Below, one piece after another: positions 9,157-59,473 of a stretch of DNA of 64,000 nucleotides. The notes below the pieces were generated by a model that made no database searches, was not told where the DNA came from, and saw only the letters and a list, made by a program, of their open reading frames with translations. Location: the NCBI GenBank assembly GCA_964639295.1, contig CAZXDT010000001.1, positions 117,068 through 181,067 of the forward strand, read 5' to 3'. The translations under genes were made by a program, and so were the position numbers. Numbering within the stretch: position 1 is the stretch's first letter; each line of letters starts with the position of its first letter. Origin of the DNA: an uncultured Candidatus Saccharibacteria bacterium (lineage in GTDB: Bacteria > Patescibacteriota > Saccharimonadia > Saccharimonadales > JALRHH01).

Positions 9157-10638
9157 TTACTTCTTTTTGACGATAAGTTCAGTTCGGACGAGTGCTGATT
9201 TGGCACTGTCACCAGCCAGTGAAGGACTGTATGTAAACAGAGCGGTAAAGTCACGATCAAACATTGGAATGAAAGCCGGGTTCGCACTCACTAATGTCTG
9301 CTTGTTGAGTCCATCGAAGTCAAACACCTCCATTTTGCCCTTGCTCACAAACATCATACGATGGCCATCCATCCAGTTAACTTTCTGGCCTGGATCAAGA
9401 GGCAACCCAGTATCATAACGGTATTGTTGCTTGGTCTCCGCGTCGTATAGCTCGAACTTACTACCAGCCTGCACGGCCACAAAACGAGCATTAGCAGAGA
9501 AGGTTACGGAGTCTGGGTTATCTAATTTGAGAAGGAGTAACGGGATGTTGAGTGCCGTGTCACTTTTCTTAAGTGCGGTCAGTGGATTACGGTACAAGTA
9601 CACTTTACCATCTGCAGAGGAGCCTGTGGCGAGGTACATATCACCATCAAATTCAGCGATATTAAGTAGATATTTTGGGCCTGTGACGAGCTCGCGGACC
9701 AAGTAATCATTCGCCCCATCCTTAATATGAACATTTACTTTGCCAGATGCCGCACCCTTATCGGTGGTATACAGCACTGTGCCTTCTTTGTACGGCCAGA
9801 AAGCAAGTACTTGGTCAGCAACGGCTGTGGCAACCTTGTCTTTCAGCGTTACCGACTGGAGAATGCCCCCATTTACATCATGGGTGTAGAGTTGGTCAGC
9901 TTGCTTGTTACGTAAAGTAACCGAGGTAAAGTTCTTGCCAAGTAGCTGAGATATATTCGTGCTCTGTTCGGGATTCTCACGGTCGATCAGCAGATAGTCA
10001 TAACCACCTGTAAATGTATGTTTGAGGAGCACGTGTTTGTTGTCAGTTGACCATTCGGTGAATTCCAAGCCTTGAGTACCAGTGTGTGTGCCAAAGATGG
10101 CAGCAGGCACCGTAATAGGTACAGTTACGTTTTGCTTTGTACTTGTATCAATAATCTGGAACTTGGACAGATCATCCGGATAGTGAAGTACTATCCAGTG
10201 TCTATCCGGTGATTCCGTGACGACATCAGGTGTCGTAGCAAGTGCTGTTGTGATGTCTTTTGACTCAAGTGTGTTTGGGAACATGAACGGATAGACTAAT
10301 CGAACGATTCCACCACCCTCAACCGCAAAACTTCGTTTCCAGCTGCGGTAACCGTCACGTTGTAGCTCAACATTGTAGTTTCCGGCTTCTAGAACAAACC
10401 GACCATCGGTCTGGCCTTTATCTTGTCCATTTAATAGTATCTTTGCTGATTCAGGGTGAGCATCGACAAACACCAGTCCATTCTGAGTAACTTCACCAGT
10501 AGAACGGTTAATGCCGTAACCTAGTGCAGCAAACAGCAATAGTGTTGTGGCCAGAATAAGTGCAATACCAACCAATACATATCCGATCATCAACCGGATA
10601 GCATGGGCGCGTTTCTTCTTGGGATCAAGGAAATCCAT
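9157..10638 (-). CDS. membrane-anchored PEGA-domain protein with a beta-propeller-like C-terminal region
   Basis: N-terminal TM helix. PEGA-like segment VFVDAHPESAKILLNGQDKG...GNYNVELQRDGYRSWKRSF. Confidence 0.6.
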   Translation of the reverse strand: MDFLDPKKKRAHAIRLMIGYVLVGIALILATTLLLFAALGYGINRSTGEVTQNGLVFVDAHPESAKILLNGQDKGQTDGRFVLEAGNYNVELQRDGYRSWKRSFAVEGGGIVRLVYPFMFPNTLESKDITTALATTPDVVTESPDRHWIVLHYPDDLSKFQIIDTSTKQNVTVPITVPAAIFGTHTGTQGLEFTEWSTDNKHVLLKHTFTGGYDYLLIDRENPEQSTNISQLLGKNFTSVTLRNKQADQLYTHDVNGGILQSVTLKDKVATAVADQVLAFWPYKEGTVLYTTDKGAASGKVNVHIKDGANDYLVRELVTGPKYLLNIAEFDGDMYLATGSSADGKVYLYRNPLTALKKSDTALNIPLLLLKLDNPDSVTFSANARFVAVQAGSKFELYDAETKQQYRYDTGLPLDPGQKVNWMDGHRMMFVSKGKMEVFDFDGLNKQTLVSANPAFIPMFDRDFTALFTYSPSLAGDSAKSALVRTELIVKKK

Positions 10639-22387: not shown

Positions 22388-22440
22388 TCACTTTTCGTCC
22401 TTTTGGACTCGTCAGTACGACTTACATTCGTATAAGTGAT
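22388..22440 (-). ncRNA. type III hammerhead ribozyme motif (HH1)
   Basis: Minus strand reads TCACTT-A|TACGA-ATGTAAG-TCGTA-CTGACGA-GTCC-AAAA-GGAC-GAA-AAGTGA. Stem III is 6 bp, stem I 5 bp, stem II 4 bp with G10.1/C11.1. Cleavage triplet is UUA. The 3' edge lies 3 nt from the convergent response-regulator stop codon. Confidence 0.82.
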
Positions 22441-22868: not shown

Positions 22869-22889
22869 CAGTCTACTCCTTCTTGTAAA

Positions 22890-22921
22890 GTGTCATGGTT
22901 CTAGAGCCAGACCTCTGTTAC
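22890..22921 (-). promoter_or_regulatory. conserved 5' leader motif shared with the 38918-38949 leader
   Basis: Minus strand reads GTAACAGAGGTCTGGCTCT-N4-CCATGACAC. The 19-nt and 9-nt blocks are identical to those in the leader of ORF 38972. Confidence 0.55.
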
Positions 22922-22978
22922 TTAGCCTAAGCCAAATCACTTATCACCAGATAAGAATATCCCTAAGGATTAACAATT

Positions 22979-27888: not shown

Positions 27889-27910
27889 TGGTGATCTCGA
27901 GGGGAATCGA
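27889..27910 (-). repeat. 22-nt direct repeat of the tRNA-Glu 3' end (att-like)
   Basis: TGGTGATCTCGAGGGGAATCGA is identical to 28076-28097. Identity stops inside the T-loop. Confidence 0.85.
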
Positions 27911-28041
27911 CCTACCTTCGGCAGGCCCGAAACTACGTCCTTGAAAACCAGTTTTCAAGAGTAGGTTTCCTTGCGAATTGCCACAGGCAATTCTCACCCT
28001 ATTACCAGCCGGCAACAGGCGTTTGATTCCGCAATAACAGT

Positions 28042-28075: not shown

Positions 28076-28150
28076 TGGTGATCTCGAGGGGAATCGAACC
28101 CCTATTGCCAGGATGAGAACCTGGCGTCCTAACCGTTAGACGACGAGACC
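28076..28150 (-). tRNA. tRNA-Glu (anticodon CTC), CCA encoded
   Basis: Minus strand reads GGTCTCGTCGTCTAACGGTTAGGACGCCAGGTTCTCATCCTGGCAATAGGGGTTCGATTCCCCTCGAGATCACCA. Anticodon loop is TTCTCAT. Confidence 0.9.
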
Positions 28151-36600: not shown

Positions 36601-37461
36601 ATGAACAAAGTCAAGACGCTTACGCTAAATTCACCCCTGTTTCCGGAGCAGCTTCAGCATATAGCTGATCCGCCCCGGCAATTATATTATTTAGGCGATC
36701 TAGAGAATGCTCTCAACAAACCGCGCCTGGCTATAGTAGGGAGCCGTAAGGTATCTGCCTATGGGAAATCCGTCACTCTCAAATTGGCCAGAGAGGCCGC
36801 AGAGCAGGGTATTGCTATTGTCAGTGGGCTTGCGCTCGGTATTGATGGGTTAGCCCATCAGGCGGCCTTAGAAGCAGGCGGATTGACCATAGCCGTATTA
36901 CCTAGCGGTCTTGATAAAATCTATCCTGCAAGTCACCACAACCTTGCAGAACGTATTCTAAAACAAGGTGGGGCGCTTATTACCGAGTTTCCCTTCGGTA
37001 CGCAACCGTTTAAGATAAACTTCTTGATCAGAAACCGCATTATCTCTGGCATCAGTGACGCTGTACTGATAACGGAGGCAGCCGTCAGGAGCGGGAGCCT
37101 CAACACAGCCCGTCATGCCCTAGAGCAGGGTAGAGATGTTATGGCAGTACCCGGCAATATCACCAGCGAGCTGTCTGCTGGTACAAATAACCTTATTAAA
37201 CTTGGCGCCACCCCTGTAACGGAGATCCGAGACATCTTGGCAGCTATGGACCTAAAGCAGACGGGGAAGAAGACCGCCCCTATGGGCAGCAGCCCAGAAG
37301 AAAGCGTTATTATAGAACTCCTCGTTAGGGGTGTTAGTGATTCAAGTGAGTTATTGCATCATAGCGAACTGACTCCACCAATATTCAATCAAACGCTCAC
37401 CATGCTGGAAATAACAGGTAAGGTCCGGCCTCTTGGTGCAGGACACTGGGGTATTGTCTAA
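36601..37461 (+). CDS. dprA: DNA processing protein DprA
   Basis: GSRKVSAYG, SGLALGIDGLAHQAAL, VPGNITS. Confidence 0.88.
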   Translation: MNKVKTLTLNSPLFPEQLQHIADPPRQLYYLGDLENALNKPRLAIVGSRKVSAYGKSVTLKLAREAAEQGIAIVSGLALGIDGLAHQAALEAGGLTIAVLPSGLDKIYPASHHNLAERILKQGGALITEFPFGTQPFKINFLIRNRIISGISDAVLITEAAVRSGSLNTARHALEQGRDVMAVPGNITSELSAGTNNLIKLGATPVTEIRDILAAMDLKQTGKKTAPMGSSPEESVIIELLVRGVSDSSELLHHSELTPPIFNQTLTMLEITGKVRPLGAGHWGIV

Positions 37462-37661
37462 TGTGGTTATTCGACTGGTTATTCCCGACGAGTAAACACG
37501 ACCGCAAAATGTGCAAAGATAAGGTTCGCTACGCAAACGAGCCCGCAGCACTCCAAGCTATACGGAATATCAACCCTGAGCGGAGCAAAAACAAGCCAAA
37601 CCGAGCCTACAAATGCCCTATCTGCCGTGGCTATCACTTAACACGTGCGCCCAAACGGTAA
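37461..37661 (+). CDS. small putative zinc-ribbon protein (66 aa)
   Basis: The ATG overlaps the dprA stop. A Cys in KMCKDK plus YKCPICRGYHLT suggest a small zinc-binding motif. Confidence 0.45.
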   Translation: MWLFDWLFPTSKHDRKMCKDKVRYANEPAALQAIRNINPERSKNKPNRAYKCPICRGYHLTRAPKR

Positions 37662-37911
37662 TACAGACTTTTACAGATATAATTCAGTATAAATACTCTT
37701 GCTTAAATAAGCAGATTGTTTTATACTTGATAGGTTTTGTTGACGGTTTGAGAACATTTTTCTCACCTCCAAAATGCACATTTGACAAGTAGATTGAGCC
37801 GCACAAAGCGAGGCATCGGACCATGGGTGGAAATGGTTCGTTTTCTCGCTTTGTGCCACAGAAGAGCACGTCATTACGCATGATACCCGCGAGAGCAAGT
37901 TAGGAGCCGCC

Positions 37912-38214
37912 ATGTACCTTAAGCGACGCGATCGTGTACTCGTATACGGACCGTCGAACGCTCAGTTTGCACTTCTCGGTTTGAACATTGATCAAACCAG
38001 AGCAGAGCAACTGGAGCGTGTGATCAAGCAAAGATTCAGAGCTGAGATCACCAGTGTTTGGGTCAGTCCTGACGTCCCCGGACAGTTCAGTGTCATGATC
38101 AGTGAAGACAAGTCCCGCACACCCTCGAGCCACCTGCTCGAACGCGTGGCCCGCTTCACACAGTACGACATCGGCTGGAACCCCAATAACACCCAAGTTA
38201 TCACCCGACCCTGA
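37912..38214 (+). CDS. small GC-rich cassette protein (100 aa), unknown function
   Basis: AGGAG lies 7 nt upstream of the ATG. G/C-rich codons. The 193-aa antisense ORF 37900..38481 is judged a GC artefact. Confidence 0.55.
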   Translation: MYLKRRDRVLVYGPSNAQFALLGLNIDQTRAEQLERVIKQRFRAEITSVWVSPDVPGQFSVMISEDKSRTPSSHLLERVARFTQYDIGWNPNNTQVITRP

Positions 38215-38223
38215 AAGGCACAC

Positions 38224-38412
38224 ATGCTTCGACCTACGCGAGATGACAACGGTTACCCGGTCTACGAAGGACGACAGTACGTCGACCTGCACATCGCAAT
38301 CCACGGCTTCGACCCGACTCCTACGGCCCACAACACCACGCCCATCCGCTCTACCAGGAACAACAGTTCCAACGCTGGCCTGGTGAGCTGGTTCTTCGGC
38401 TTGTTCCTGTAG
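38224..38412 (+). CDS. small GC-rich cassette protein (62 aa) with a hydrophobic C-terminus
   Basis: Follows the previous ORF by 9 nt. Ends GLVSWFFGLFL. Same composition as the previous ORF. Confidence 0.4.
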   Translation: MLRPTRDDNGYPVYEGRQYVDLHIAIHGFDPTPTAHNTTPIRSTRNNSSNAGLVSWFFGLFL

Positions 38413-38510
38413 GGACACGCTGATTGCCAAGGGGGCGACCAATACCCACACGCTGCGTGTGTTGGTCGCCCTCGGCGCCACTCTTCAAACCCCGCTCTCT
38501 ACTTGTCAAA

Positions 38511-38577
38511 TTCACTATACGAATAGGGGACCACGCGTCCCGAGTCGTACTGATGAGTCGTAAACGACGAAAGTGAA
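38511..38577 (+). ncRNA. type III hammerhead ribozyme motif (HH2)
   Basis: TTCACT-A|TACGA-(ATAGGGGACCACGCGTCCCGAG)-TCGTA-CTGATGA-GTCG-TAAA-CGAC-GAA-AGTGAA. The cleavage site (CUA) lies after 38517. Stem I is capped by an inner GGGAC/GTCCC hairpin. Confidence 0.85.
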
Positions 38578-38591
38578 ACTGCAATCAATTG

Positions 38592-38833
38592 TTGCGTTGA
38601 AGGCTAAAGCCTTCACCACCTTCTTTTCTGTGCCGACAGAAAAGAAGCAAAAGAGGCTCGTGGCGACATCAAAACGAGATTACAAGTATAACCTGGCTAT
38701 TTGCGTATCGACAGAACGCAAGCGGCCCATTTTTTTATTTAGGATCAAAATGGGCATGCTGTCGGTTTGATTCGCAAATAGTCTGAATACTTGTATCTGT
38801 TTTGCTGAGCCACCCAACCACGCCCGGACGGTT
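38592..38833 (+). ncRNA. unclassified structured element, copy A1 (A-type middle domain)
   Basis: TTGCGT, HP1 TGAAGGC-TAAA-GCCTTCA, HP2 CTTCTTTTCTGT-GCCG-ACAGAAAAGAAG, then GAAGCAAAAGA. Internal helices covary with copy A2. The 3' motif is CCACGCCCGGACGGTT. Confidence 0.6.
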
Positions 38834-38861
38834 GAGGGGATTGTTAACAATATGGTATAAT
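38832..38861 (+). promoter_or_regulatory. probable promoter of the HH3 cassette (extended -10)
   Basis: TTGAGG-N18-TGgTATAAT. The -35 overlaps the 3' end of element A1. Confidence 0.55.
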
Positions 38862-38917
38862 ATATCTTAATCTACGGATATTTCCTCATGTATGTGGGGT
38901 GGCTCAACGCACGTTGA

Positions 38918-38949
38918 GTAACAGAGGTCTGGCTCTGATTCCATGACAC
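38918..38949 (+). promoter_or_regulatory. conserved 5' leader motif (paralogue of 22890-22921)
   Basis: GTAACAGAGGTCTGGCTCT-GATT-CCATGACAC. Confidence 0.55.
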
Positions 38950-38971
38950 CTATTAACAAGGAGGTGGACGT

Positions 38972-39415
38972 ATGTCCACTGCACAAGAAAAAATCGTTGT
39001 CCCTAAAAGACTGGAGATCTTCAAAGGTCCAGGGTTCGGTGAACTGAACGGACAACTGACAGACATCAGTCGTTCGGTTGCATTGGATGGGAAGCGATTT
39101 CCGTTCACGTTCCACGTGAGGCCTATTGATGTGCCGGATAAGGACGAGTTCACCCTTGAAGTGCTGCTTAGCGGGCTTGCTTCCGTGCACGGTGATGGCT
39201 ACTCGTACCGGTTTCCTTCATATGCTGAAAAAGAGCGTGAGTGGTACTTCCGCGGTGTTGTAGATAATTACGGAAGTGAGAGCAGTAACGCTGGGCTGTA
39301 CAAGAGCATCATGTTCGGCGGGGCTGATCCAGTGATCATCAAACAGTGCCGTGGTCGCTACGACACGCACAGCCGTAGTGGCTACATTGAGCCGGGAAGC
39401 TGGAAGTTCGAGTGA
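38972..39415 (+). CDS. small GC-rich cassette protein (147 aa), unknown function
   Basis: AAGGAGG lies 7 nt upstream of the ATG. The C-terminus CRGRYDTHSRSGYIEPGSW aligns with FEGYYSTRRRTGHLNITF of ORF 22524..22868. Confidence 0.6.
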   Translation: MSTAQEKIVVPKRLEIFKGPGFGELNGQLTDISRSVALDGKRFPFTFHVRPIDVPDKDEFTLEVLLSGLASVHGDGYSYRFPSYAEKEREWYFRGVVDNYGSESSNAGLYKSIMFGGADPVIIKQCRGRYDTHSRSGYIEPGSWKFE

Positions 39416-39476
39416 CGTGCCGGGAGGCGATGTTGATGCGTTCGCATCGCCTCCCGCAGTCCCTCCTTGTTAATAA

Positions 39477-39529
39477 TCACTTATACAAATGTGTATTTGT
39501 ACTGATGAGACCAAAAGGTCGAAAAGTGA
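39477..39529 (+). ncRNA. type III hammerhead ribozyme motif (HH3)
   Basis: TCACTT-A|TACAAAT-GTGT-ATTTGTA-CTGATGA-GACC-AAAA-GGTC-GAA-AAGTGA. Cleavage (UUA) occurs after 39483. Confidence 0.85.
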
Positions 39530-39535
39530 CAAAAC

Positions 39536-39759
39536 AAACCGTCTGAGCGTGGGGTGGGCATCGGCTTTGGCCCGAGGAGTGACTCAAAGAATCTGGGCGT
39601 TCTTAAAATATGGCTGTTTGAGGCCCCGAATGGCCGAGTTCCGCATTTTTAGGCCAGATTACTTGAGGTACTTCCCGGAGACAAAACGCAGCACATGGGT
39701 TTTTGCTTCTTTTGGGCTAAGCCAAAAGAAGGTGAGCAGGCATTCATGCCTGATCGCAA
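39536..39759 (-). ncRNA. unclassified structured element, copy B1 (B-type middle domain)
   Basis: Minus strand reads TTGCGA, HP1 CAGGCA-TGAA-TGCCTG, HP2 CTTCTTTTGG-CTTAGC-CCAAAAGAAG, GAAGCAAAAA, then a B-type core (CTGCGTTTTGTCTCCGGGA...GGAACTCG...CAAACAGCCA...) collinear with copy B2. Confidence 0.55.
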
Positions 39760-39789
39760 TCTAAGCTAAAAGGTATTAGAATAAGCTTT

Positions 39790-39963
39790 ATGAGTACAAA
39801 AACACTAATTTATATAGGTATTGCCGTAGGTGGGCTAATCGGGGGCTGGCTGGGTAGCATGTTGGACCATGGCAACCCATTTGGTGCCTGGGGCATAATA
39901 CTGGGCACTGTGGGCAGTTTTGCGGGCATTTGGGCCGGTTATAAGCTCGGGCAGGGTATTTGA
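39790..39963 (+). CDS. small glycine-zipper membrane protein (57 aa)
   Basis: Below the track cutoff. Manual translation gives MSTKTLIYIGIAVGGLIGGWLGSMLDHGNPFGAWGIILGTVGSFAGIWAGYKLGQGI. Confidence 0.45.
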   Translation: MSTKTLIYIGIAVGGLIGGWLGSMLDHGNPFGAWGIILGTVGSFAGIWAGYKLGQGI

Positions 39964-42974: not shown

Positions 42975-43031
42975 TCTTTACTATACGAATGCGTATTTGT
43001 ACTGATGAGATCAAAAGATCGAAAGTAAAGA
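42975..43031 (+). ncRNA. type III hammerhead ribozyme motif (HH4)
   Basis: TCTTTACT-A|TACGAAT-GCGT-ATTTGTA-CTGATGA-GATC-AAAA-GATC-GAA-AGTAAAGA. Stem III is 8 bp. Cleavage (CUA) occurs after 42983. Confidence 0.85.
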
Positions 43032-56455: not shown

Positions 56456-56881
56456 CTATACGCCCATTGCTCCAATAACAGCTGCTGCTACCATGATGGT
56501 CACAAACTCGTGCACAATGTTGAGGAGAGTCAACTTCTTACGGCGGCCTTCAAATGCGTCATGTACATACAGGCGCGTTACTACAAGCCCAAGCCATAAC
56601 CAAAACCCAGTAGACAATGCATCTTGCATGAAAGAGTTCTGAAAGAATGTATTAGATAGATACGTAACGTGAGCCAGGACGTATGTCATAACCAGTGATG
56701 CAATAAATGTGGTACCCATAAGCCACGCCATTTCACTTGCCGGCGGTGTCTTGCCTATCTTTACATTGGCGAGCTTGGCCCAGGTTTTACCAAAGACACT
56801 CATTGAATACCAAATACCGCCGACCACCATTGTTGAAGCCGCAGCTAAAAAAACCGCTAGAACGTTAATCTGCACATCCAT
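56456..56881 (-). CDS. DUF1761 membrane protein
   Basis: INVLAVFLAAASTMVVGGIWYSMSVFGKTWAKL fits the DUF1761 N-terminal pattern. Four TM helices. Confidence 0.65.
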   Translation of the reverse strand: MDVQINVLAVFLAAASTMVVGGIWYSMSVFGKTWAKLANVKIGKTPPASEMAWLMGTTFIASLVMTYVLAHVTYLSNTFFQNSFMQDALSTGFWLWLGLVVTRLYVHDAFEGRRKKLTLLNIVHEFVTIMVAAAVIGAMGV

Positions 56882-56942
56882 AGTGAGAACTCCTTATTTA
56901 TAGAATTAAGTATGCTCTCAGGAAATTAGAAAAACAATAGAG

Positions 56943-57169
56943 TTGCGTTGAAGGCTAAAGCCTTCACCACCTTCATTTCTTGTGTCGACAAGAAACTGAA
57001 GCAAAGAAACTCGGACTGCGTTTTGTCTCCGGGATGCCTGGCAAGCAATTGAGCCTAAAATTTTGGAACTCGCGGTTTAGCGCTTCAAACAGCCAAAATT
57101 TCAGAACGGCTCAATTCTATGCCAGTCCTCTCGGGCCGAAGCCGATGTCCGGACCACGCCCGGACGGTT
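56943..57169 (+). ncRNA. unclassified structured element, copy B2 (B-type middle domain)
   Basis: The first 33 nt (56942-56974) are identical to A1 38591-38623. The B-type core is collinear with B1 and has compensatory helices (CAATTGAGCC/GGCTCAATT versus AATCTGG/CCAGATT). The 3' 16 nt CCACGCCCGGACGGTT are identical to A1. Confidence 0.55.
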
Positions 57170-57245
57170 TATCAATAATCATAAAGCCTGTGTACAAGCA
57201 AAAAAACGGCGAGGAATTCTCGTCGTCGGCTTAAATGCTTAAATA

Positions 57246-57614
57246 CTACTGGTGGCCTGAAGTACGAACTTCAATCTTCTGGCCAATCTCGAGTGGTTGC
57301 TGAACATTAATAGCCACACCACCAAGATGCGCCTCAATAACAGCTAAATCATGTAGCTGCTCTGCGTTATCCATCGCAAACCTTTTAGCAGATTCCATGT
57401 CATTTGCATACTGCCGTCGCTGAATATCAACTACCTGTTGCTCATTGTATTCCACCCATCTTTGAGGCAATCCTGGACCACCTTGCCGCAAATCAGTTTT
57501 TTTAAGCTCTCTAAATTCTGTCTCGGCGTTTTCAGCTAATCTAGCACGTAGCTCATGACTTGTGTAATGTGCTACTGCTTCTTTACGAATTTCGTTTAGT
57601 GTTTTTCTTGACAT
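57246..57614 (-). CDS. hypothetical protein (122 aa), cargo of the second A/B-bracketed unit
   Basis: ORF with ordinary composition. There is no SD. TTGACA-N17/18-TAATTA lies just upstream, suggesting a near-leaderless mRNA. A terminator hairpin plus T-run lies downstream at about 57190-57240. Confidence 0.5.
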   Translation of the reverse strand: MSRKTLNEIRKEAVAHYTSHELRARLAENAETEFRELKKTDLRQGGPGLPQRWVEYNEQQVVDIQRRQYANDMESAKRFAMDNAEQLHDLAVIEAHLGGVAINVQQPLEIGQKIEVRTSGHQ

Positions 57615-57667
57615 ACTATATAATTAATCATACTCATGCTTTTTTGTCAATAATGTGTAACTATAAT

Positions 57668-57909
57668 CATCGTCCGGGCGGGGTTTGTGCATCGGAAAAA
57701 CCGGTGGCTGGCATCAGGGCTACTCCGAATCAAGTCGGCAGTGTCCCCTATTTCCATCCTAAGTAAAGAAATAGGGGCGCTTGCGTTCTGTCGACGCGGA
57801 GTAGCCCTGGTTTGACTGCCAACAGTGTTTTTTCGCCGCACGAGCTTCTTTTGCTTCATTTCTTGCGATCAAGAAAAGAAGTTGGGCGGACCTTTAGGTC
57901 CGGACGAAA
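57668..57909 (-). ncRNA. unclassified structured element, copy A2 (A-type middle domain)
   Basis: Minus strand reads TTTCGT, HP1 CGGACC-TAAA-GGTCCG, HP2 CTTCTTTTCTTG-ATCG-CAAGAAATGAAG, GAAGCAAAAGA. The helix CCCCTATTTC/GAAATAGGGG replaces A1 GCCCATTTT/AAAATGGGC, with a conserved loop TTAYTTAGGAT. CTACTCCG/CGGAGTAG replaces CTATTTGCG/CGCAAATAG. Confidence 0.6.
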
Positions 57910-57921
57910 CTTGAGCTAAAA

Positions 57922-58959
57922 CTATTTCTTTAATTCGTCTGAAAGATTCAGGGCTTCTTTGGTTTCATCGTCTTCGGTTAGTTTGAGCGGCTTTTTGCTC
58001 TTGATCTCGTAACGGAGGCCGGTCATTGGTGATTCGTAGTAATCGTCGTTGAGGAGGTTTACGAACTTAGTCAGGTCTTTAGTATCCATTATGATGATTG
58101 AACCGTCAGTGTCGGTCATTAGATCAATACCGAGCTCTTCTGCGTGGTTTAGCAACTCATCTTGTTTAACGGCATTGGTGTCGATCTTCTGCAATTTGTT
58201 GATGAGTGGCTTTTTCTCCATGACGAGGCTATTCATTGTGGCACCGTCAGCAAAGCTGAGTTTGAAATTCTCTTGAATCTCGGCAACCTTTTTCTCTGCA
58301 ATGGCGGCTTTTTTAGCGTTGTAGTTGAACAGCTGCTCGAGTTTGGCTTGGTTAAAAACATAGATGTCTTGTTCCAGAATGAGCATTTGGTTGTCATTTG
58401 GCACGCGGAAGGCACCATCTGCGTCAAATGGCACGAATTTGCCACCACGCATTAGCCAGCCGACATTGCCCTTCATGACATTGGCGCTTGGCATAATTTT
58501 AGGTACGTAGAATGGCTGCGTTAAGCTTGGGTGGCTGACGCGAGCGATGATACCTTTAATACGCTTGAGGTCGTGCTCTTCCTCAACAAATTGCTCTATC
58601 TCCGCTTCTTGGGTCTTCAGCCAGCTTAAAGTCTCACGAGCTTTAGGCACGTTCTTAAGCCTGGTACGTTGCAGCACCATTTGCTCTGCCTCGGCTTCCT
58701 CGAAGCTTCTAACAGTTAGGCCAACATCCGCACCTTCTAGTACGTATTCTAGGATTGGGTCAATAAGTGCTTGGTGGAGTGATAGTTCGAGGTCTTTACT
58801 CCGGGAAGTCTTGTAGACTACTCCGTTTTTGTTTATCAGAAATAGCTCAATTTTGAGCTCTTCTTTAATCTGGACTAGGTTATTAGCCCATAAGAAAATG
58901 TCTGTCTCGACGTAATCGTCGGCGTGTTCGCTAAAAGTAGGTGTAGTTTTGTCTTCCAT
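57922..58959 (-). CDS. hypothetical protein (345 aa)
   Basis: Acidic, soluble-looking protein with no catalytic motif recognised. A vague resemblance to DUF4868-type proteins could not be verified. Confidence 0.5.
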   Translation of the reverse strand: MEDKTTPTFSEHADDYVETDIFLWANNLVQIKEELKIELFLINKNGVVYKTSRSKDLELSLHQALIDPILEYVLEGADVGLTVRSFEEAEAEQMVLQRTRLKNVPKARETLSWLKTQEAEIEQFVEEEHDLKRIKGIIARVSHPSLTQPFYVPKIMPSANVMKGNVGWLMRGGKFVPFDADGAFRVPNDNQMLILEQDIYVFNQAKLEQLFNYNAKKAAIAEKKVAEIQENFKLSFADGATMNSLVMEKKPLINKLQKIDTNAVKQDELLNHAEELGIDLMTDTDGSIIIMDTKDLTKFVNLLNDDYYESPMTGLRYEIKSKKPLKLTEDDETKEALNLSDELKK

Positions 58960-59014: not shown

Positions 59015-59473
59015 TTAAGCAGCAAGTAGAGATTCTACTGAATGAACTGGGACAAACACACCGGAGCGTATTCGTTCACCTACGAACAGAGGGTTTGATT
59101 TACTTGCAAGAACTCGTGCTTCGCAAAGCTGTAAACACAGGCTAGAGAGTGTCCCGTAACGGATAAATGTAAAACGACTGAAGTTACTATGCATCACGGC
59201 ATCCGCAAAATAGGTGTCGTGATATAGCTGTTCATCAGATGATACTGCATTCTTCCCTTGGTACAACACAAGGGCGCCCAAAGTATGCACAATTACCTTG
59301 TTACCACCATGCAGCTCACGCGGGTCACCCATAACTTCTATGGCTTCGGCGGCGAAAACGACCTGCATTTCTGCTTCCATTGTTGCAAGGTTAGTCTGTA
59401 GTTCCTTGGCAACTTGTAGAGTATCCGCCGGGACAACGAGGTTAGATCTTGGTGATAAGTCTATGGCTTCCAT
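59015..59473 (-). CDS. hypothetical protein (152 aa)
   Basis: Co-oriented with 57922..58959 and 55 nt upstream of it. No motif recognised. Confidence 0.45.
   Translation of the reverse strand: MEAIDLSPRSNLVVPADTLQVAKELQTNLATMEAEMQVVFAAEAIEVMGDPRELHGGNKVIVHTLGALVLYQGKNAVSSDEQLYHDTYFADAVMHSNFSRFTFIRYGTLSSLCLQLCEARVLASKSNPLFVGERIRSGVFVPVHSVESLLAA

Follow-up and report, generated by a model that had tools for sequence, protein, structure and literature searches.

In a 64,000-nucleotide (nt) stretch from an uncultured Candidatus Saccharibacteria bacterium (contig CAZXDT010000001.1, positions 117,068 to 181,067; hereafter the window), the segment at 56942-57909 is, as judged by sequence comparison, a strain-specific cassette: a self-contained expression unit for one small cargo gene, set between inverted copies of a structured repeat and inserted between a KwaB-like gene and a DUF1761 gene. 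We propose, with about an even chance of being right, that this repeat family marks recombination-driven cassette hot spots and forms the edges of self-contained cassettes. Saccharibacteria and other members of the candidate phyla radiation (CPR) have tiny genomes with few recognizable mobile elements, and their strains differ in many small unassigned genes. The locus shows how strain variation is organized here, namely as mostly leaderless cassettes at fixed core-gene hot spots, often edged by a mosaic repeat. If the repeats do take part in capture or exchange, they would represent a new route of gene flux in a phylum of the uncultivated majority and might provide natural "landing pads" or portable homology arms for Saccharibacteria genetic tools. 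Even if they are passive, they constitute a new, strongly covarying 240-nt structure that is absent from Rfam and worth describing.

A variable interval behind the KwaB-like gene

The unit at 56942-57909 is made up of element A2 (57668-57909, minus strand), the cargo open reading frame (ORF; 57246-57614, minus strand), and element B2 (56942-57170, plus strand), that is, a convergent element pair around one small gene. The window holds another convergent pair around one small gene at 38591-39760, in which A1 (38591-38834, plus strand) is the upstream bracket of ORF38972 and B1 (39536-39760, minus strand) its downstream bracket. An earlier note, made from the letters of the window alone, had described the two units as mirror images carrying different cargo, and its element coordinates and orientations were all reproduced in our analysis. 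The KwaB-like (DUF4868) gene lies at 57922-58959 and the DUF1761 gene at 56456-56881, both on the minus strand, the latter with a promoter region of its own at 56882-56941; with GH1, they are the neighbors of the unit. Between the KwaB-like stop codon and A2 there is a linker, TTTTAGCTCAAG (57910-57921, minus strand), of 12 nt, the distance that the note had estimated.

The interval was compared with contigs of five KwaB-like cluster mates that share at least 90% protein identity. Together with the window, the relatives present five complete configurations, one of which is empty, plus one partial configuration. The window carries A2, the cargo, and B2. In the empty site of L147, the KwaB stop codon TAG is directly followed by TTATTGTATTTC and 59 nt lie between the two genes. 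L005 has a B-type element (the types are described below), a HAD hydrolase gene, and a 25-nt remnant of a second element; this remnant consists of the loop, outer arm, and tail of the second element's outer end and stands just before TCTATTG. A B-type element followed by a 214-aa ORFan occupies the site in L007, L008, and L009, and an element-free 444-aa ORFan occupies it in L006. L148 supplies the partial case: past KwaB its sequence differs again, and 71 nt later the contig breaks off.

The variable segment is bounded on the right by (C/T)TATTG, which lies upstream of the DUF1761 promoter, and this boundary is constant to 1-3 nt in every contig that reaches it. On the left, most contigs have the boundary at the KwaB stop codon; in the window and L148 it falls within the last KwaB codons. 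The C-terminal tail of the KwaB-like protein differs from those of its relatives in the last few codons, and because these codons are strain-variable, the left edge of the variable segment must be placed in the KwaB-like gene. The claim that the unit exactly fills the gap between two core genes must be relaxed on the KwaB side, where the variable segment begins about 15-40 nt inside the KwaB-like 3' end. A synteny comparison of 56456-57922, as the note had proposed, showed a polymorphic interval with empty and alternatively filled sites; since it is polymorphic, related genomes do not all carry the same interval with the same cargo. On this comparison, the KwaB-DUF1761 interval is a cassette hot spot. 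The KwaB-like gene itself has no recognizable KwaA partner (57922-58959 and 59015-59473), and the hot spot lies directly behind this defense-type gene.

The cargo ORF encodes 122 aa, in agreement with the note. Ten proteins of its family were found, with a conserved N terminus, a variable middle, and a nearly invariant C terminus (LHDLAVIEAHLGGVAINVEQPLEIG), with almost no change over the last 30 residues. Sequence searches of Pfam, PADLOC, PHROGs, and PDB returned no match. AlphaFold 2 (AF2) models the protein as a helical hairpin whose tail is of low confidence, and the structure matches were generic coiled-coil only. The gene is served by a promoter, TTGACA-N17-TTAATT (57622-57650, minus strand; -35 at 57645-57650, -10 at 57622-57627), which is separated by 7 nt from the ATG, with no Shine-Dalgarno sequence; the note had likewise placed a promoter directly before the start codon. 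The -35 box plus spacer, TTGACAAAAAAGCATRAGYATGAT, is conserved in the homologues of L001, L002, L135, and L137, and the promoter accompanies the cargo gene in every homologue seen. The leaderless arrangement ascribed to the cargo is true of the window copy and of L001, but a leader of about 50-70 nt precedes the homologues of L002, L135, and L137. Reading the sequence directly, we also located the normal terminator that the note had placed behind the cargo, an intrinsic terminator of a stem plus T7 (57200-57230, minus strand) between the cargo and B2. One A.C mismatch in its stem had hidden it from the consensus scanner.

A leaderless arrangement is seen in many of the accessory genes here: the -10 box stands 6-7 nt ahead of the ATG, and a Shine-Dalgarno sequence is missing (window 57615-57650 and 39770-39792; L006 2215-2252; L007 3620-3659; L012 2162-2200). 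Moreover, the 20 nt that lead up to the -35 box (TACACATTATTGACAAAAA) are common to the window and L007 despite a different element type and cargo, which points to a recombination joint inside the promoter.

A folded repeat assembled from modules

Repeat finding, alignment, and an nhmmer profile agree on exactly four element copies in the window, A1, B1, B2, and A2; the profile gave E values of 1e-44 to 1e-57 at these four and identified no fifth place. The probability that the family reflects chance similarity or an assembly artifact is, in our estimation, vanishingly small. A short Logan contig, L133, does start 3 nt inside A1 and within the 33 nt that A1 has in common with B2, as an assembly broken at a repeat would, but all four window copies have E values below 1e-43, and JGI, ENA, Logan, and NCBI assemblies independently carry homologous copies in consistent contexts.

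The element is about 230-245 nt long and has an outer tail, RTTKCG, in every copy. At its terminus lies a hairpin, H1, whose sequence differs in nearly every copy while its pairing is always kept. A second hairpin, H2, is conserved in sequence (CTTCTTTT...AAAAGAAG) and is followed by GAAGCAAA. The center is an irregular long stem of roughly 150 nt, for which there are three or more sequence types unrelated to one another (A, B, and C), and the 3' (inner) end carries the motif CCNCGCCCGGACGG, with the consensus (CCGATG/GAGCC)N5-8CCNCGCCCGGACGG. In B2, the tail is GTTGCG, H1 is TGAAGGC-TAAA-GCCTTCA, H2 is accompanied by GAAGCAAAG, the central stem is of the B type, and the inner motif is CCACGCCCGGACGGTT; the corresponding parts of A2 are GTTTCG, CCGGACC-TAAA-GGTCCG, H2 plus GAAGCAAAAG, an A-type stem, and CCCCGCCCGGACGA. 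The two identities that the note had reported between A1 and B2 were both recovered: the outer 33 nt (38591-38623 and 56942-56974), which are also the longest exact run between the two copies, and the inner 16 nt, CCACGCCCGGACGGTT (38818-38833 and 57154-57169). Its division into A and B as two kinds of element has to be given up, as the alignment shows one family with common 5' and 3' modules and exchangeable central stems. This family appears to be undescribed and is absent from Rfam.

Read module by module, the copies are mosaics. B2 combines an H1 from A1 (33/33 nt), a C-type H2 (90% identical to the C-type copy of L012), and a B-type center (72%). L012R, a copy in L012, joins an A-type center to an H1 and H2 like those of L005, and B1 and L007 match exactly over 53 nt while the rest of the two elements is about 70% alike. 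The nearest relatives of B1 are KwaB-adjacent copies of other strains (84% identity for L005, and 80%), and since these stand at another locus, copies must move between loci over times comparable to strain divergence. Copies from one genome are 35-64% identical overall, with no identical full-length copies among them. The partner brackets A2 and B2 are inverted homologues that are about 38% identical overall, with only the tail RTTKCG common to all copies, and partner ends are no closer in sequence than non-partner ends.

About 11 element copies from a few strains were collected in total, and eight of these entered the covariation alignment, in which 20 of the 30 consensus pairs show compensatory (two-sided) changes and 85% of cells are paired. 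None of 500 shuffles reached the observed pairing values, pairing fell to 30-54% in a slid-partner control, and fold z-scores were between -4 and -9 in most copies. On account of the covariation and of the shuffle and sliding controls, we conclude that the element fold is under selection. Neither strand stands out as the folded one: the minimum free energy of the antisense strand is lower in seven of the eight copies, but this advantage is gone against composition-matched shuffles, and G.U and A.C counts in symmetric loops are 7 vs 10. Structure is kept about equally on both strands, and typical RNA tetraloops were not seen. Neither the scanner nor direct reading revealed a conserved promoter for the elements themselves in either orientation. 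As for coding potential, open frames differ from copy to copy, and a protein-database search using the open frames read across the elements produced no match.

These properties bear on whether the elements could be cis-acting RNA or small RNA modules, serving as insulators or terminators, in processing or stability, or in upstream regulation, with their bracketing of cargo a by-product. We consider this unlikely. Strong covariation and a multi-stem architecture would suit such a role, as would the position of the upstream copies, each of which immediately follows a co-oriented gene (KwaB, RNase J) and immediately precedes the cargo promoter; a U-rich tract (CUUCUUUU) follows H1 in the sense orientation, the downstream copy in L137 and L012 is within the 3' region of the cargo transcript and ahead of any terminator, and hammerhead-like motifs adjoin A1 and B1. 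Upstream and downstream copies, however, are oppositely oriented to local transcription, and one RNA strand can therefore not serve both. The sense strand of B2 is without a plausible source of transcription, because ORFs of at least 110 aa between 45.8 and 64 kb lie on the other strand, with the exception of one short overlapping plus-strand ORF that is probably spurious. The elements also have neither a conserved promoter nor an Rfam match, the cargo promoter and terminator are both located between them, and the flanking genes manage without elements in L147, L006, and L149. A more specific version of an RNA role, an rRNA-like processing stem in which both brackets pair in one transcript, was rejected, as H1 is not common to the partners and their overall identity is about 38%.

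Possible routes of cassette gain and exchange

The arrangement of element, promoter, small gene, and inverted element is repeated elsewhere. In L012, a Candidatus Saccharibacteria metagenome-assembled genome and the one named genome found to carry the repeat, a convergent pair encloses an unrelated 69-aa leaderless ORF beside RNase J. The cargo homologues P0003 and P0008 lie beside rpsT, each behind a C-type element plus the same promoter; at this locus, L137 has an inverted downstream element directly after the cargo stop codon, and the syntenic L135 is without one. A supposed remnant of the downstream element in L135 was dismissed because its alignment was not convincing. Distant cargo homologues (L001 and L002 to L004) have no such element. 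Thus, the search for other pairs and their cargo that the note had recommended was successful in L012 and L137, but its picture of elements paired around genes is only partly borne out: convergent pairs recur, but L005 and L007 to L009 have a single element and L006 has none. Similarly, the suggestion of a cassette system with interchangeable cargo between conserved structured ends is supported by the polymorphic interval and the recurring architecture, with the amendment that the ends belong to one mosaic family and that pairing is not obligatory.

A second site, dprA-topA, offers a view of the outer ends. Contigs L149, L150, and L151 align to the window up to 38605 and again from 39738. In place of A1-ORF38972-B1, they have a 32-nt palindrome, GTTGCGTTGAAGGCTTCAGGTTTGAACGCAAT (L149 9689-9720, also in L150; L151 316-345), in which two pieces meet at the loop: the outer tip of A1, comprising the tail and the outer arm of H1 (15/15 identical), and the corresponding tip of B1, with its outer arm and tail. 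The palindrome in L149 may represent a footprint or else a seed site. Mosaicism extends to the remainder of the dprA-topA interval (window 37461-38580 vs L149 7853-9537), where L149 carries one additional ORF of 216 aa and a different one of 71 aa, and a hammerhead-containing 3' segment is common to both. This hot spot thus holds several stacked cassettes. We also observed a motif, YNRAGCTAAAA, immediately beyond the outer tail of A2 (57910-57921), B1 (39761-39772), L012R (L012 about 2437-2450), and the L149 palindrome (9721-9732); it is missing outside A1, B2, and L012L. Its presence at some outer tails only implies that the two ends of a unit may be non-equivalent.

Under the reading that we favor, in which the repeats mark recombination-driven hot spots, cassettes would be gained, lost, and replaced through recombination of imported DNA. 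This is suggested by the natural competence that has been shown for Saccharibacteria (PMC10633639) and by the presence of dprA in the window; the DprA-like ORF is located at 36601-37461, and its syntenic counterpart in L149 is 76% DNA-identical and carries PF02481. Short homology would come from the core genes on either side and from the dispersed copies of the element, and the terminal hairpin H1 may act as a fragile or preferred breakpoint. The elements would persist as recombining repeats with a selected fold, which may serve, for example, their own propagation or the insulation of the cassette from outside transcription, and no dedicated enzyme would be encoded in cis.

In keeping with the note, which had reported no transposase, integrase, or reverse transcriptase in the window, we found none among 29 window ORFs scanned against Pfam (those around both units, most of those of at least 400 aa, and most of those at 43-63 kb); only housekeeping or unknown families were detected. 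Rfam 15 at the gathering threshold identified three tRNAs and nothing else in the whole window and had no match at six related loci, and its E-value mode, applied to both units, yielded a weak hammerhead match plus noise. Phage and plasmid collections searched by blastn contained no element match. Pattern scans of IMG/VR gave 0, 0, and 9 matches, and the nine fit no element model and apparently represent one conserved phage coding region. No target-site duplication was seen at unit 2 (flanks ATAGA/TTGAG), unit 1 (CAATT/CTAAG), or L012 (ACACA/TCGAG). A TnpB/IscB guide RNA, a retron, and a group I intron were considered and rejected, with no associated protein or Rfam signal.

It is possible, though doubtful, that the unit is instead a non-autonomous cassette whose folded ends, probably as single-stranded DNA, are cut and joined at H1 by an enzyme encoded elsewhere. 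Such a cassette can be pictured as a giant element of the foldback/REPIN-like or mobile-insertion-cassette-like kind. In favor of this, a single structured family supplies both ends as inverted copies with conserved outer tails (RTTKCG), paired elements are seen again around unrelated cargo, and there are empty plus filled sites whose right edge is constant. The dprA-topA site of a relative is reduced to the two outer tips, which meet head to head at the H1 loop, L005 retains the loop, outer arm, and tail of its second element, and B1 finds its nearest relatives at a different locus in other strains. The roughly equal conservation of structure on both strands and the lack of typical RNA tetraloops also speak for this reading. 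Against cutting by such an enzyme, target-site duplications were not found at any unit, and the left breakpoint is strain-variable, lying inside KwaB in the window; these two observations together argue against precise integron- or transposon-like insertion. Further, no full-length copies are identical (35-64% within a genome), partner ends are no more similar than non-partners, solo elements and an element-free cassette (L006) occur at the same site, and the window ORFs scanned include no candidate enzyme.

A bolder proposal, which we regard as distinctly improbable, is that the elements are the ends of a hairpin-dependent cassette mobilization in reduced-genome CPR bacteria, amounting to integron-like capture without an integron. 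An enzyme encoded elsewhere, or a host nuclease or repair pathway, would break and rejoin DNA at the H1 loop; excision of the cassette would leave a tip-to-tip palindrome, insertion would take place at hot spots between core genes, and the covarying H1 arms would form a recognition or "address" structure.

Several observations weigh against recombination of imported DNA as the full explanation. Homologous exchange leaves the conservation of a 240-nt fold with a covarying H1 unexplained, and a right edge that is constant to 1-3 nt could equally mean site-specific insertion. L149 and L150, 24 kb of a related strain, are without any full element, and elements are therefore not needed for cassette variability as such. 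The notion of H1 as a breakpoint is based on two cases, L149 and L005. The collection is also small: to the approximately 11 copies from few strains, a strict-pattern genome-wide scan added one genome, and a metagenome pattern scan returned 120 loci, nearly all of them an unrelated CTTCTTTTTTGAAAAAAAGAAG hairpin, with no new copy.

Attachment sites of integron cassettes (attC) are single imperfect hairpins of 57-141 nt, present once per cassette in the same orientation beside intI and attI, and the cassettes are mostly promoterless. The units described here resemble integron cassettes in that unrelated small ORFs are delimited by repeats conserved in fold and variable in sequence. They differ in having inverted pairs or solo multi-stem elements of 230-245 nt and a cargo with its own promoter and terminator, with no integrase found among the window ORFs scanned and no array. 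Mobile insertion cassettes and miniature inverted-repeat transposable elements have short terminal inverted repeats and target-site duplications. A version of these with a passenger would also show inverted ends around a gene and no transposase, as found here, but the ends of our units are long, diverged, and fold-selected, and no target-site duplication was found. The likeness to retron noncoding RNA, small hairpins followed by a long hairpin, is superficial, as there is no reverse transcriptase beside any copy and the cargos are unrelated ORFans.

The closest parallel, by analogy, would be the minimal mobile elements of Neisseria combined with structured repeats of the REPIN, BOX, or Correia kind. 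Minimal mobile elements are strain-variable whole-gene cassettes between two conserved genes in a naturally transformable host; they have no mobility gene, and recombination within the conserved flanks best accounts for the way they are exchanged (PMC1538595, PMC3082526). Here, too, different genes are found between the same conserved pair (five complete configurations) and no mobility gene was found among the window ORFs scanned. Unlike minimal mobile elements, most of the cassettes here have a large structured repeat at their edges, in one copy or two, and there is one edge constant to 1-3 nt, an empty site, a tip-to-tip footprint, and a reduced-genome Saccharibacteria host. Repetitive extragenic palindromes (REPs), their doublets (REPINs), and the REP-associated tyrosine transposase (RAYT) form a system of dispersed, long-lived extragenic palindromes with compensatory hairpins and inverted doublets that have no transposase in cis; REPs measure 20-40 nt, and a REPIN, with its short spacer, spans about 100 nt (PMC3116915, PMC3337134). 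Units 1 and 2, L012, and L137 are likewise inverted doublets of hairpin-forming repeats, although the scale is very different: the arms are multi-stem elements of 230-245 nt, and the "spacer" is a complete expression cassette. No RAYT (Y1/HUH transposase) was found among the window ORFs scanned. BOX, RUP/SPRITE, and Correia (CREE, Correia repeat enclosed element) sequences are modular, folding intergenic repeats of competent bacteria, built in the case of BOX from boxA, boxB, and boxC modules, and they can influence expression (PMC3049150, PMC2649163). Our elements are similarly modular, strongly folding, and located beside genes in naturally competent bacteria, but they have no sequence relation to these families, are larger, have few copies (4 in 64 kb), and typically lie at the edges of variable cassettes.

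Other features of the window

The gene content of the window (the dcw cluster, tRNA synthetases, the DprA-like ORF, topA, and RNase H) is that of a core chromosomal region and is Saccharibacteria-like. Four hammerhead-like cores, each CUGAUGAG followed by a hairpin and CGAAA, occur at 38520-38580, 39482-39530, and 42982-43029 on the plus strand and at 22393-22432 on the minus strand. At least three are situated just 3' of a small ORFan (ORF38972; 42555-42890; and 22524-22868 on the minus strand). One core scores in Rfam, weakly, as Hammerhead_3 (22.7 bits, E value of 0.25), and the core before A1 is kept in a relative without A1 (L149 9620-9670).

Two unrelated small ORFs have a 47-nt motif of the 5' untranslated region in common (AGTAACAGAGGTCTGGCTCTGATTCCATGACAC; 38917-38963 and 22876-22922). 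A related sequence, TAACAGAGGT, is found inside direct repeats of about 110 nt that flank the cargo homologue of L002 (L002 3718-3826 and 4445-4555), and both may represent another cassette punctuation or a leader element. Finally, tRNA-Glu(CUC) has a second copy of its 3' half at a distance of 187 nt (27889-27925 vs 28076-28112, with the first 22 nt identical), possibly a scar left by integration at this tRNA gene.

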